The translations under genes and the position numbers were made by a program. Positions 12,179 to 17,994 of a stretch of 64,000 bases of DNA are shown piece after piece (positions within the stretch are counted from its first letter, which is position 1; each line of letters begins with the position of its first letter). The stretch is from Neodothiora populina. Its lineage: Eukaryota. The DNA is taken from positions 1,860,001-1,924,000 of the forward strand of contig NW_027191404.1 of assembly GCF_041146345.1 (NCBI RefSeq), in the 5' to 3' direction. The notes beneath the pieces are model-generated. The model worked only from the letters and a program-made list of their open reading frames with translations, was not told where the DNA came from and searched no databases.

Positions 12179-13646
12179 ATGGAACCAGACGCAGGACCGG
12201 ACAAGTCACCCCCTAGCCTGCCAACAGGATGGTACGCCTCCTTGAAACCACTCCCCAAAATTATACTTATTCAGCGGCTTGGCATTGACGCATCGGATTC
12301 AGGATAGCACAGTGGGATGCAAGGTATGACGATGCCTCTTGTCACCACAAACGGCCCGTCAAGGTTCCAACTGACCAACATCTCTCTCCTCAAGTTCACG
12401 TAAATACTACTTTGTCCAGATCAGCACCGGAGTGTCAACTTGGGAAACCCCTACAGAGCCAGCACCCACAGTCCCAACCCCGGGAAGTACACCAGCACAG
12501 CCTCAAGGACCTTTTGCGACGCCAATGTCGGGCAATCACAACCAAGACGAGGGCACGAGAGGCATGAACGGTGATGGTCAGGAAGGCGAGCGTGGACTCG
12601 GTGTAAGCTTATTCTCTGAGAGTTGTCTGTTGTGGACAGAGAGCGGCTAACAAACGCGATGCAGAGCATGGCCCTGAACGCCATGATGAGCGGCAACAAG
12701 CCCCAACAGCAAGGTCATCAATCCGGACTTGCTGGCCTGGCCTCGAGTTTCCTCGGCGGCGGTTCCAGCCATGGCAACAGCTCGGGTTCACACAACAGCA
12801 GCGGTGGCGGCGGCGGCGGCGGTGGCGGTCTTGTCGGCCAGCTCGCCGGTAGCCTCCTGGGGGGAGGATCACACAACAAGCCGCAACACCAGCAGCAATC
12901 GACAACCTCCTCGTCCGGCTCTGGTGGCCTGGGTGGCATGGTCGGCAGTCTTTTGGGCGGCGGACACGGCTCGGTCAGTCAAAAAGCAAAAATGGCGAAC
13001 GTCAACGTCTAGCGGCCACTCGAGCTAACACATGCTATAGCAGGGCCAGCACCAGCAATCAGGATATGGCTACAGCTCTAACGGCGGACAGAGTCAGGGA
13101 GGCACCTACACGGGACAGCCACCCCCATCGTCTTATTCCGGAGCGCAAGCTCAACACTCGTCAACACACACGGCACACTCGACGCCTAGCTCGTACGGTC
13201 CATCAAGCGGTGCTTATAACCCTCAGTATGGCGCGCACCAGCAACCAAGCCCTTCATACGGTTCCACACCGGCGGGGGGATACGGCGGTCAGTCGACCCA
13301 TACACCAGGCGGATACGGCCAACACGACCAATACTCCCAGCATCAACACAACCAGTACGGCAGCCCTTCACACGCACCCGTGCAAGACCAGTACAGCCAA
13401 AACCAGCACGGGGCCTATCCCGGTGGTCAGGGACCCCCAAGTGGTCACGCAGGAGGTTATGGTCAATACCCTTCACCACCTGGCATGGGCGCGCATGGCG
13501 GCTCGCAATACGGACAACCTCCATCATTCGGCGGTCCCCCACAAGACCAATACAATCAGCACCAACACAATCAATATGGTGGAGCATCGCATCACGGCGC
13601 AGGCGGTGGCGGTGGCTACAATGGACCTCCTCCGGCATGGCGCTGA
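12179..13646 (+). CDS. WW-domain protein with Gly/Gln/Ser/Tyr/Pro-rich low-complexity tail (Wwm1-like; 5 exons)
   Basis: Spliced WW domain LPTGWIAQWDASSRKYYFVQISTGVSTWETP, including a 21-nt micro-exon at 12303-12323. G/Q/Y/P-rich tail ends PPPAWR. Confidence 0.8.
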
Positions 13647-14269
13647 GCGCGTTGGTCTGAATACAGACGTGGCACGAGAAATCCGAATAGAACGTGGATG
13701 GGAACTGCGGTTGCAGGGCGGGGTTCATATGTTATCTACTCTTATTGCATATAGCGCGCGTGTGGATTGAATGCAGCACCTGGTCAGGATACCTTATGCA
13801 CTTGCAGTTTGTAACTTCTAAACTCGAGCCTTTTTTCCCCTGTGATTCTCGGTATGTATCGCAGATATACACCTCTACCTTCTTTATCGCATACATTCCT
13901 GATCAAGTGTCTCACTTCAGAGACCAGGACAGTTAGCTTGAAGGATGGTCGAGCAGCAGACCAAGTCACGTGCGAGATTTTGCCAAGGCGGTGTAGGTGA
14001 CCCTGAGCCAACTGGGCGGGCCCCCGTCGTCACCTGCGGACTGCACCTGAGGAACCACGTTGAAAGACAACACGCTGATATCCAATCCACCCATTTCTGT
14101 CCATCGCTGCTGGCTTCTTATCTCTGCCCAGTGATTCCGCCTCTTCATCTCGTCTCTTCTTCACAATCTCTGCCCTTCCTCTGATCATCGTCGAGTAACA
14201 GAAGCTCTCTGCAACCTTCGATACCGCTCCAATACACAATCGGCGCAGGTCGACCTTCACATATCCAAG

Positions 14270-15227
14270 ATGAACCCAGAGTAGTATGTGCATCGATAAT
14301 GCATTGTGCACGAGGAGCCGTTGTCGATAGCAGTGCTGACAGGGACCTTTGCAGAGTCATACATGTCTACACGGGACACTTTTTCCCATTACAAGGACCC
14401 CTATACAAGTCGGAATGATGAAACTCACACAACATGCCTGTTATACAGATACGACTACCTCTTCAAGCTGTTGCTGATCGGTGACTCCGGTGTCGGGAAG
14501 TCATGTCTTTTGCTGCGATTCGCCGATGACACCTACACTGAATCTTACATTTCCACCATTGGTGTCGACTTTGTAGGTCCATTCGCCTTCTTATCCGGCC
14601 AATCAGGCACCAGCCGCGCTGACACAGATCTCCCTAGAAAATCAGAACTATCGAGCTCGACGGTAAGACGGTGAAGCTTCAAATTGTAAGTCGTTGGCAT
14701 GATTGTTGTTTCACGGATCATGGCTGATTCGGGTGTCGTCGTGAAAAAAAATAGTGGGATACCGCCGGACAAGAGCGCTTCCGTACCATCACCTCATCCT
14801 ACTACCGTGGAGCTCACGGCATCTGCGTCGTCTACGATGTCACCGATATGGACAGTTTCAACAATGTCAAGCAGTGGCTGCAGGAAATTGACCGCTACGC
14901 AACCGAGGGCGTCAACAAGCTTCTGGTCGGCAACAAGAGCGATATGACGGACAAGAAGGTCGTCGAGTACACTGTGGCGAAGGTATCTGGGTCTCGCGTG
15001 CTAGCTGTGATACATTCGACTGACAAACACAGGAATTCGCCGATTCCCTCGGCATTCCATTCCTCGAGACCTCGGCCAAGAACGCCTCCAATGTCGAGCA
15101 AGCTTTCTTGACCATGGCCCGCCAAATCAAGGAGCGCATGGGCAACACCACTGTCAACAACAAACCCACCGTCAACGTAGGACAGGGACAGAGCGTCAAC
15201 CAGGGCAGCGCAGGCGGCTGCTGTTAA
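14270..15227 (+). CDS. YPT1: Rab1/Ypt1 small GTPase
   Basis: [38 protein letters not shown] and C-terminal GGCC prenylation motif. The first intron is complex (see findings). Confidence 0.97.
14281..14448 (+). other. Spliceosomal twin intron (stwintron, D3,4 type) in ypt1
   Basis: GTA|GTATGT..GCTGAC..GCAG|AGT. Removing 14284-14354 creates GTAAGT; the outer intron has ACTCAC..TACAG (14448). Confidence 0.8.
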
Positions 15228-16489
15228 GAGACAAGAGAGAGAAAGAGATTGAGCGCGCTGCAACGCAAAACCACAAGAGATTCCCCCTAATCAACCAACC
15301 AACCGACCCCCTTCCGTTCCGAGCCTTGTTTTTTTTCCTCCTCCCAACCTCTTTGGCTCCTTTTATTTCCCGTTTTCTGGTCCTTTTTCCATTTCCTTTT
15401 CATTCCGACTCTTTATAGCAGAAAGGCGGGTTAATGATGCGAAATCCGTTTGTTTTTGCTCGCATGGATTGGAGACGAAAACGCCACTTCATAAGGGGAG
15501 GTTTTTGTTGTCCATTCGACTACTCTATGCATGCATGGCAAACGTGTTGTTGAGAAATCCAATGGGCTGGGGGGGTTTTTGGTGGCAAAGAGAGACGAGA
15601 GAGAAACCGAACCGAACCGAACCCTTAGTCCATTCCGAAGACCAAATGAAATTCTGCATCTTCCTCCACATTTGATCGATATATGAATTTGATCTATGTA
15701 TGTTTGGTGTTGGCGCTCATAGCCAAGTTCTTGCTCCCGTGGCCTTGAATCTTGCCTTGCTTTACATTACTTCACCTTGGCCTGCTTTGCAGTACCCTGC
15801 CTTGCCCTGCCTACTCTATCCATGAACATAGATATGTACACGAGTACGGATACACGCGTATCGATCGACTCCTTCAAAGTCAAGGAAAGACGAGTGTCTT
15901 CTATCCTGCTCTGAGAGCCACTCATGCTCTCGGTACACGTGCTCTGAGAGACCAGATAGAAGGCAGAAAATAATCAAAGAACAAAGCGTCGAGGAACTTG
16001 GCAGAGTTGTGAACACTGCAATTATGATCCGAGTTCGATCTTTGATTGAGACTTTTGCTGGATTTCATGTTATGTTATCGATTGCATGGTACCTTTGATG
16101 TTTGTTCCGTTGTTGTGGAATACTCGGTTGGAGAAAAATAGGCAGAAAAAAAAAGAAGAAAAAAGAGAAGCGTGGTCGTCATGGCTGTTGAAAAGTGGTA
16201 TAATGCCATGCTGCTGCCTGCTCATGCTTCTTCATAGTACTCCTGCCCCCATGCTGATGCGCCTGCTCGTTCTTATATATATCCCATCCGTGGTTTGAAC
16301 AAAAATCAGAAGACGCCCGATCGATGCAACCGTTTCCCCCTTCGCATAACGCCCTGTCCATATCCCATACCCATTGTCCATTGCCATTACGCCGTCGCCG
16401 TCCCAAATGCAAAGCTCCACAACCCGAGATGACTACCTAAGCTCATCGGATTGCAAACCGTTAGTAATGGTCCTTTCTCCTTGTCTCCC

Positions 16490-17994
16490 TCATACAGCCA
16501 GATCTTCGTCGAACAGAGGCTCTGCTTCTTCATCGTCTTCTGATTCGCGCACCTCCCAACACAGCAGTTTCCAGTTCAGCTCTGGACGCCAAAACAGCCC
16601 GTAGCCGAGTCCGTCGTCAGCCACCATGGCACCGGTCTTGGGCATGCGCTGACCGAAAATGCAACGGGCGAAGCGCGAGTGGAGAATGGCCATGGAACAC
16701 ATCATGCACGGCTCGTGTGTAAGGTAAACCTCTAGTTCGACACAGAGGTAGCCATTTGCAACGATGTTGTCTTGCTCAAAGGCATTGCTCTCGAGTGGAG
16801 TCAGAGGATAGTCTAGTAGTGCCTCGGGGACACTCTTGGGCGCATCTGGTGCAGGCGCTTTCGCAGGCTTGTTCAGGTCCAGAGCAGCCATATTATCGTC
16901 CAGCTCTTCGGGCTTCTTGGCCGCGATTCGGACTCGCTTGCGGGCGACCATTCCGATTGCACGCATGACGGCGTGAGACATGACATTCGGATGGACATAA
17001 TCGGCGCCGTTTGGTGCTTTATACCTGGCATCTCCAGCCACAGCGACGATTTCGGGCGCCTTGCCGGCAGGGCGCTCAATAATTATACATCCCATCTGTT
17101 CTCCGCATCCTATGGCTTTGGTCTCGGCAGCAACTCGCTTAGCAAGACCCATAGCACGAGGGATATTATCGCTGGCTTTGAGCTCTTCTTCGGCTTTACT
17201 GACAATCGAAGGATGAGGTCCGAAAGGATTGGTCTTGCGATACATGGTGGGCCAGTATTTCTGAGACCAGAGTTCCGACTGCTCGGGAGAAGTAGGCGCC
17301 AGCAAGGGAACTTCGACCTCCCTCAGGACGAGAGGATAGGTAGCCTCCCAGAACGGAGAGACTTCTTCCAGCAGTTTGCTCAGCTGAGGTTTGTCGATGA
17401 ATCGTGTAGGACAGATGAGCATGTGAAGCGTCGCGGGTCCACTATTCCTGCGACGGCGGTTTGATCTCGACCTTGAAGACGCCGTTGTCTGGGGAGCGTC
17501 GCCATTGTTTCCTCCAGTACTTGGACTTCGAGACTGGGAGCGTTCTGGAAGCAGATGGGCAGGCAGAAAGCGAGCCTTTGCAAAGCGACGAAGATGCTGG
17601 AGGTCAATTGAGTCCTGGTCCTTGATGTTCTCCTTGAGGAAACTGCGCATCACGTGTTAGCGAACCTGCATTTCACCTCTCGATTTAATGTTCCATCTTC
17701 TCTGCATCTTGTTGGTAGCGATACGAAATCCACATTGCGCCAGAAAGATGAAGTGGAAAAGAAGAAGACCGATCAATCCAGAGATACATACTTCAGCGCA
17801 TGGTTGGCCGCCTTCGCTGGGAGTTCGAGCGTCCACACTTGGATAGTATCCGTTTGCGCACGATTCTCTGCCCTCGTCTTCAGATGGAGTAAGCCCGCGG
17901 GCGGCATCGTTGCATGGGATGGATGATTGTCATGGGGTGATGGGACCGAAGTCTTCTCACCCCGAGGAGAACGAGATCTGCCTCTGCTTTCCAT
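16490..17994 (-). CDS. TAD3: tRNA-specific adenosine-34 deaminase non-catalytic subunit Tad3 (1 intron, ~17643-17790)
   Basis: DLQHLRRF, WSQKYWP, HAVMRAI (Val in place of the catalytic Glu), YLC..L.VYLTHEPCMMCSMAILHSRF and LNW. Confidence 0.9.

Follow-up and report, generated by a model that had tools for sequence, protein, structure and literature searches.

Spliceosomal twin introns (stwintrons) are known but rare complex introns. Their demonstrated types, as listed in the available part of an article from 2020, are only [D1,2], [D2,3], [D5,6] and [A2,3] (PMC7138796), and the types other than [D1,2] are rarely met according to the accessible text of a report from 2025 (PMC12403724). The present study deals with a stretch of 64,000 nucleotides (nt) from the fungus Neodothiora populina (assembly GCF_041146345.1, contig NW_027191404.1, positions 1,860,001 to 1,924,000 of the forward strand), which is referred to below, at its full length, as the window. 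It contains the gene ypt1, coding for the Ypt1/Rab1 GTPase that controls autophagy and the traffic from the endoplasmic reticulum to the Golgi. The first intervening sequence of this gene (positions 14281-14448 of the window) is very probably a donor-disrupted stwintron of the type [D3,4]—with the outer donor split after its third nucleotide—removed in two ordered steps; this type is not found on the list mentioned above, as far as its available part goes.

The stwintron of bioDA, a [D2,3] type known from Sordariomycetes and Botryosphaeriales, resembles that of ypt1 in having an inner U2 intron inside the outer donor, in its old position conserved across whole taxa, and in the fact that the messenger RNA needs two consecutive splicings (PMC5639578, available part). 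Its outer donor is, however, split after nt 2 and not after nt 3. According to the same part of that article, several lineages have lost it or retain only a plain intron, whereas no plain intron was seen in ypt1 among 101 listed loci (see below), and its intermediate was shown by reverse transcription polymerase chain reaction, that of ypt1 being predicted from the sequence.

The [D1,2] stwintrons, i.e. lipS, found in a putative lipase gene of three Leotiomyceta classes, and the sister stwintrons of Hypoxylaceae and Xylariaceae, also belong to class [D] and follow the same inside-out logic as ypt1 (PMC5639578 and PMC12403724, accessible parts). They begin with GGT and are often also readable as [A2,3], whereas ypt1 is without an alternative parse. 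The sister stwintrons have, moreover, spread to new positions, and their family in Xylariales exhibits copy similarity and terminal inverted repeats; ypt1, by contrast, represents a single orthologous locus with neither of these two features and with one fit in the window. Donor-split designs are known also from rtnA, the [D5,6] stwintron of a reticulon-like gene of Aspergillus, and from the complex introns of Lipomyces, with different nested designs at one position (PMC7138796 and PMC6616335, available text), comparable to the loci L067 and L091 described below. The split position in rtnA differs from that in ypt1, and rtnA takes part in exon skipping, of which none was seen for ypt1.

The tandem donors of the GYNGYN type share with ypt1 the presence of two GTs three bases apart. 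Such donors share one acceptor and produce two isoforms that both stay in frame, without requiring an inner 3' splice site; in ypt1, on the contrary, the downstream GT paired with the final acceptor leads to a stop directly behind MNPE, and the inner 3' module is conserved. Long animal introns with recursive (ratchet-point) splicing have AG|GT sites, at which a complete donor becomes attached to the upstream exon. The first reaction regenerates a 5' splice site there as it would in ypt1, the difference being that the two halves of the ypt1 donor would be united by the removal of the nested intron.

As to the sequence features of a class [D] stwintron, the inner U2 intron, the interrupted outer donor, the sizes of both units and the frame were all found in ypt1, the outer branch element being off consensus. 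No report of a stwintron in ypt1 appeared in full-text literature searches, the scope of which lay outside the founding paper of 2013 and supplements and in which [D3,4] is unsearchable as a term; this agrees with the initial annotation, made from the sequence alone, that knew of none. For stwintrons in connection with a GTPase, the accessible literature offered nothing beyond a general review from 2014, and nothing on this intron was retrieved with the other fungal gene names (Ncypt1, srgB, rabO, yptA) or with the first intron of ypt1.

Anatomy of the first ypt1 intervening sequence

The 5' part of the gene in the window is composed of the following features:

14270..14280, plus strand, coding part of exon 1: ATG AAC CCA GA, i.e. 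Met-Asn-Pro and two bases of the Glu codon (GA at 14279-80)
14281..14448, plus strand, entire first intervening sequence (168 nt), interpreted as a [D3,4] stwintron
14281..14283, plus strand, first three bases, GTA, of the outer (split) donor
14284..14354, plus strand, inner intron, 71 nt, with GTATGT (14284-89), GCTGAC (14335-40) and CAG (14352-54)
14335-40, plus strand, inner branch element GCTGAC with the branch A at 14339, 15 nt 5' of the inner acceptor
14355..14357, plus strand, last three bases, AGT, of the outer donor, giving GTAAGT with 14281-83
14423..14428, plus strand, ACTCAC, the probable outer branch element, one base off the consensus, its A (14427) lying 21 nt 5' of the acceptor
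14446..14448, plus strand, outer acceptor CAG, which was part of the search pattern for relatives
14449..14572, plus strand, exon 2, A followed by 41 codons, starting with A TAC GAC TAC CTC TTC AAG

The total of 168 nt thus consists of the inner intron of 71 nt and the outer intron of 97 nt (3+94). The junction 14280^14449 creates an open frame of 606 nt encoding 201 amino acids (aa), with MNPEYDYLFK at the N-terminus and GSAGGCC at the C-terminus, that is identical with the Ypt1 model of Hortaea in 192 of 201 residues. According to a script check of all pairings of the four splice sites, it is the only junction that leaves Ypt1 open: the inner donor joined to the outer acceptor gives a stop behind MNPE (GAG TAA), the same stop follows the removal of the inner intron alone, and the 5'-most GT joined to the inner acceptor yields a stop after 24 codons. 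All the coordinates and motifs of the initial annotation proved correct to the base when the sequence was read again and checked by scripts. This applies to the lengths of both introns, the rebuilt GTAAGT donor and the MNPEYDYLFK terminus, as well as to the claim that the products of the GTATGT donor read GAG TAA, which was reproduced by translating the pairings.

A semi-strict [D3,4] pattern—GTR-GTRNGY, 25-120 nt, DYTRAY, 4-24 nt, HAG-WGY, 25-120 nt, NYTNAY, 4-24 nt, HAG—has one fit on both strands of the 64-kb window, located at 14281 (1 of the 12 GTRGTRNGY sites), the shuffled windows averaging 0.34 fits and never exceeding 2. In the window alone, chance is therefore only weakly countered; the strength of the [D3,4] case comes from the fact that the fit sits exactly where the frame needs it and from the relatives, the comparative data on which make a chance origin of the layout untenable.

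An alternative parse of the [A] type was rejected, no GT/AG pair yielding the frame, as was a micro-exon or a recursive AG|GT site, none of which is present. The RNA fold of the intervening sequence showed no excess over shuffles (z 0.35), and no Rfam family reached the threshold in the region 13800-15600. One sequencing run covering the region was identified as DNA, its contig of 251 nt spanning exon 2 together with adjoining parts of the outer intron and of intron 2, without any splice joint.

The nested layout in related ypt1 loci

The relatives come from a scan of a metagenome collection in which only the final acceptor and exon 2 were fixed (AG-R-TAYGAYTAY...), the donor side being left free; at the first base of exon 2, which completes the split Glu codon as its synonymous third position, A or G was allowed. 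The scan yielded at least 111 loci, and all the orthologue counts given here refer to the matches listed. The sequence ATGAAYCCNGA is present within 700 nt upstream in 94 of the 111 loci, the other 17 comprising 10 that are too short to reach the 5' intron end and seven with another N-terminus or a cut contig. These seven extra loci (L018, L026, L048, L052, L095, L061 and L071) all start with GTR followed by a donor, and the inner YAG|AGT was also seen in all of them but L095. Their variant N-termini are MQPE (L026), MASQE (L048), MVTPE (L052 and L095) and MNSE (L061), the contigs of L018 and L071 being cut at the start of the exon or intron. All 101 listed loci with a visible 5' intron end share the nested design, a plain donor being found in none of them. 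The locus L048, reading GA|GTG|GTAAGT...CAG|AGT, is a divergent Rab1-like gene of 37% G+C that represents either an orthologue from a distant lineage or a paralogue.

The 94 loci and the window provide 95 intervening sequences, 83 of them distinct and 145-541 nt long, to which the denominators of 83 refer. Each of the 83 has GT at nt 1-2, with nt 3 of the outer donor being A in 51, G in 26, C in 5 and T in 1. A second donor occupies nt 4-9 in 81 of the 83 sequences and fits GTRNGY in 78 of these 81 cases, the remaining three being GTACGA (two) and GTTCGT; the individual hexamers are GTACGT (19), GTGAGT (13), GTGCGT (11), GTATGT (9), GTAAGT (9), GTAAGC (7), GTACGC (5), GTAGGT (4) and a few others. 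The outer donor is accordingly split after nt 3 in 81 sequences, after nt 2 in one and after nt 5 in one. The two exceptions rebuild GTATGT in both cases: L067 consists of GT, a 75-nt inner intron and ATGT, corresponding to [D2,3], and L091 of GTATG, a 79-nt inner intron and T, corresponding to [D5,6]. These two loci are the most telling, the inner intron having moved within the donor with the two-step logic retained. It may be added that the C-terminal tail of L067 is divergent and that the last exon of this locus seems to be interrupted by an additional intron.

Apart from the splice signals, the similarity among the intervening sequences does not exceed that of shuffled ones, the median pairwise identity being 0.57 versus 0.55 for shuffled pairs, with 0.6% of pairs exceeding 80%. 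Even close relatives differ freely there, such as L075 compared with the window. The C-terminal tail of L075 is the same as in the window, and its intervening sequence has 210 nt and starts with GTA|GTGCGT.

Concerning the inner 3' end, a blind rule was applied: from 30 nt behind the inner donor onwards the first CTRAY was taken, and the acceptor was set at the first AG that follows its branch A at a distance of 7 nt or more. The triplet behind the acceptor so defined is AGT in 52 of the 83 sequences, followed by AGC (12), TGT (5), CGT (3) and GGT (3); NGY is found there in 76/83, including one TGC (L042, where the rule halted at an earlier AG). The remaining 649 AG sites of these sequences are followed by AGT in 9 cases and by NGY in 76, and in 200 dinucleotide shuffles AGT turned up behind the acceptor no more than 4 times (0.55 on average), approximately 36 of the 83 shuffled sequences being without any CTRAY. 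If each cluster of more than 75% identity (65 clusters) is reduced to one representative, AGT remains behind the blind acceptor in 44/65. The rule missed in L033, L102 and L042, with CAG|AGT at the next AG. The whole module DYTRAY-N4-24-HAG-WGY occurs in 71/83 orthologues versus a shuffle mean of 2.0, and a second CTRAY is situated 8-45 nt 5' of the final acceptor in 63/83. A conserved GTA|...|AGT in related fungi, which the initial annotation had proposed to look for, is seen as GTN plus donor in 81/83 and as AGT behind the blind acceptor in 52/83.

The strength of the donors was judged against 227 distinct ordinary introns (introns 2-4 of the same loci), the donor matrix being built from their donors. 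In the window, these introns and the remaining exons are:

14573..14637, plus strand, intron 2, 65 nt, GTAGGT...TAG
14638..14685, plus strand, exon 3, 16 residues
14686..14754, plus strand, intron 3, 69 nt, GTAAGT...TAG
14755..14982, plus strand, exon 4, 76 codons, WDTAGQERF...EYTVAK
14983..15032, plus strand, intron 4, 50 nt, GTATCT...CAG, donor without G at +5
15033..15227, plus strand, exon 5 to the stop TAA (15225-27), ending with ...GSAGGCC

The first six bases of the intervening sequences, taken as they stand, have a median of -1.92 bits, the window with its GTAGTA having the same value of -1.92, and none of the 227 ordinary donors (median 7.52 bits) is as low. The inner donors reach, on the other hand, a median of 8.12 bits (8.88 for GTATGT of the window) and the rebuilt outer donors 6.90 bits (8.54 for GTAAGT of the window). 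G at +5 is present in 211/227 ordinary introns; the donor of intron 4 in the window, GTATCT (14983-15032), has C at this position and belongs to the type with a non-G at +5 seen in just 16/227 donors of the family. The ordinary introns are 46-121 nt long, with a median of 59 nt, the 95th percentile at 98 nt and 0/227 reaching 145 nt. Based on the blind rule, the medians for the 83 sequences are 85 nt for the inner and 102 nt for the outer part (71 and 97 nt in the window), so that both units are of normal fungal intron size. Introns of A. nidulans average 73 nt and canonical ones above 160 nt are rare, according to the available text of PMC6616335.

With regard to the taxonomic breadth, the C-terminal tails from 56 loci were compared with named proteins. 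Tails identical to those of Dothideomycetes were found for Aureobasidium (L001), Hortaea (several loci) and Curvularia (L042, L063, L070 and L074), the others being identical to Rhypophila from Sordariomycetes (L012), to Cudoniella from Leotiomycetes (L010 and L068) and, in many cases, to Gyalolechia/Lecanoromycetidae (Lecanoromycetes), while the tail of L064 is 98% identical to Aspergillus (Eurotiomycetes). This points to a nested design spanning five classes of Pezizomycotina. The locus L061 is AT-rich and yeast-like, with the rest of the gene in a single exon and with Sugiyamaella as the best named match (84%). Its intervening sequence of 458 nt reads GA|GTA|GTAAGT...ACACTAAC...TAG|AGTATA...AACTAAC...TAG, the inner unit having approximately 401 nt as counted on the printed sequence. 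If L061 comes from a Saccharomycotina yeast, the design would either predate the split from Pezizomycotina or have arisen twice. The models of Yarrowia, Sugiyamaella and Saitoella read ...RYDYLFK, and the position of the intron is therefore old. Taken together, the nested design of ypt1 appears to be old and widespread and not a recent slip. The suggestion of the initial annotation that it could record a shift of intron position found no support: the outer intron is at the same phase-2 position in 111/111 listed loci (a position required by the search pattern), the design seems ancient, and it is only the inner insertion point that varies, i.e. [D2,3] in L067 and [D5,6] in L091.

Proposed order of splicing and alternative explanations

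For a [D3,4] stwintron at 14281-14448, the following course is predicted. The strong inner donor GTATGT at 14284 would pair with the nearest branch element and acceptor, GCTGAC...CAG ending at 14354, the 71 nt being taken out by intron definition. GTA (14281-83) would then be joined to AGT (14355-57), resulting in the new, previously nonexistent donor GTAAGT, and the predicted intermediate, lacking 14284-14354, would read ...CCAGAGTA|AGTCAT.... A second reaction would take out the 97-nt outer intron up to the CAG at 14448, and the joining of GA with A-TAC would give MNPEYDYLFK. The inner intron would leave first since U1 and U2 pair the nearest good sites. We infer this order, as well as the intermediate, from the intron-definition rule in the stwintron papers, where nearest-site pairing by intron definition removes the inner intron first (PMC7138796, PMC5639578 and PMC6616335, each in its accessible part). 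Of the claim made initially—a stwintron spliced inner first and outer second—the [D3,4] structure is thus strongly supported by the conservation among orthologues and by the donor scores, whereas the order follows from the rule just mentioned. The retention of the design would most likely be due to the fact that any loss of an inner signal would destroy an essential gene, and a dedicated regulatory job is unnecessary to explain its persistence; for bioDA, the authors argue that the loss of any inner signal blocks the removal of the whole stwintron (PMC5639578, available text).

Several points weigh against this interpretation. The intermediate 14283^14355 and the mature junction 14280^14449 are, in this fungus, predictions made from the DNA. 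The outer branch element of the window, ACTCAC, breaks DYTRAY at one base, the CTCAC/CTCAT form before the final acceptor being present also in L001, L004, L036, L045 and L065, among others. A strict literature-style pattern adapted to [D3,4] is passed by 16/83 sequences and failed by the window, the relaxed one being passed by 70/83; the frequent occurrence of C at donor +4 and of CTCAC branch elements in these fungi makes the strict pattern too narrow for them. Unusual donors are rebuilt in 3/83 sequences, namely GTAAGA in L053 and GTTAGA in L093, both with AG|AGA behind the blind acceptor, and GTATCC in L045 with AG|TCC, the last one resembling the GTATCT donor of intron 4 in the window. 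It should also be pointed out that an intron at this position was a prerequisite of the search pattern, so that lineages with a lost or moved intron are invisible, that the orthologues are related by descent and their counts represent non-independent trials, and that the taxonomic labels are derived from the identity of short tails and from a single best hit, both of them weak as classifiers.

It could be argued that the 168 nt form a single intron cut in one step at the weak GTAGTA, with U1 docking on GTATGT, cleavage 3 nt upstream and an inner module that is incidental. Two GT dinucleotides 3 nt apart are indeed present, and both tandem GYNGYN donors and shifted U1 registers have been described in animals and plants. 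This explanation is nevertheless very unlikely: it leaves unexplained the mid-sequence branch element, YAG and NGY, the last following the blind acceptor in 76/83 sequences versus 76/649 other AGs amid a divergence like that of shuffled sequences, and also the loci L067 and L091, in which the inner donor has moved and GTATGT is still rebuilt; the score of its 5' hexamer is, moreover, lower than that of any of the 227 ordinary donors, and all the ordinary introns are shorter than 145 nt. The [D3,4] stwintron spliced in two steps might, in addition, double as a dosage valve, in which a regulated share of splicing from the inner donor to the outer acceptor would give the MNPE-stop, decay and a tuned level of Ypt1. 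The mis-pairing results in an immediate stop in the window and likewise in the 77/83 orthologues starting with GTA or GTG, and the first base of exon 2 (14449 in the window) is A in 90 of the 91 different sequences of this exon, although GAG (264) outnumbers GAA (82) among the remaining Glu codons of exons 2 and 4; this near-invariant A could reflect the acceptor context or guarantee TAA/TGA upon mis-splicing. Almost a whole stwintron is also occasionally excised as one intron, as described in the available part of PMC12403724. On the other hand, the stop on mis-pairing needs no special selection because R at +3 is normal for donors (214/227 ordinary ones), the A is retained even in the GTA class, in which a G would result in a stop as well, and six orthologues with GTC or GTT would give no stop at all, so that such a valve must be considered quite unlikely. 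The broader idea of an ancient splicing checkpoint instead of a mere frozen accident, older than the split between filamentous ascomycetes and the relatives of budding yeasts, in which the inner and outer acceptors compete for the strong inner donor, the productive share sets the Rab1 dose and the A of exon 2 secures the stop, is regarded as unlikely.

The gene model itself could, finally, be wrong, with the start located elsewhere, e.g. at ATG 14363 in frame with exon 2, and with 14270-14448 as a leader. This ATG lies inside the outer intron and is open for 29 codons into exon 2, and many database models of relatives carry extensions of such a kind. The signature of the nested layout is in fact borne independently by named database models: the named Curvularia model begins with MNPEWYV, which is the read-through of GA-GTG-GTA-YGT; the Aureobasidium and Cudoniella models begin with MNPEV, as is obtained, also in the window, when the 5'-most GT is joined to an inner acceptor with AGT behind it; and many other models read ...RYDYLFK as the read-through of AG|R. 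The models with such deviations include P0059, P0073, P0081, P0084, P0098, P0102, P0115, P0245, P0252 and P0253, with 206-290 aa versus approximately 201-203 aa; since the listing of off-length Ypt1 models is biased to odd lengths, it yields no rate. The wrong N-termini represent read-throughs or false splices of the first intervening sequence, and ATG 14363 is the kind of false start that gene finders pick. A different start is extremely unlikely also with respect to the following: chance alone would leave 29 codons open in about 1 of 4 cases (an estimate), the N-terminal extensions of different species share no sequence, ATGAAYCCNGA directly 5' of GT is conserved in 94/111 listed loci, and the transcript-like entries P0038 and P0101 read ...MNPEYDYLFK across the junction.

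Neighbouring genes and significance

Two neighbours of ypt1 may be mentioned briefly. Downstream, at 16490-17653 on the minus strand, there is an open reading frame (ORF) of 387 aa with a CMP/dCMP deaminase domain, similar to the tRNA adenosine deaminase Tad3. A 422-aa protein of Neodothiora populina matches it at 100% identity across 99% of the ORF, the next named relative being from Aureobasidium (60%), which places the window in Dothideales, and the gene probably has a further 5' exon beyond the 387-aa ORF. Upstream, the plus strand carries, at 12623-13770, overlapping ORFs with a high content of Gly, Gln, His and Ser (e.g. 12623-13012 and 13380-13646), which probably belong to a gene with introns for a low-complexity protein.

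As regards the meaning of the [D3,4] reading of ypt1, standard gene finders cannot model a nested intron, and many deposited N-termini of fungal Ypt1 are wrong. A [D3,4] stwintron in a single-copy, essential and highly conserved gene would be notable. If true, the ypt1 case would be among the oldest and most widely kept ones, being seemingly shared by a yeast-like relative and five classes of filamentous ascomycetes, and it would be a good model for the origin and persistence of nested introns as well as for the question of a possible use of two-step splicing.

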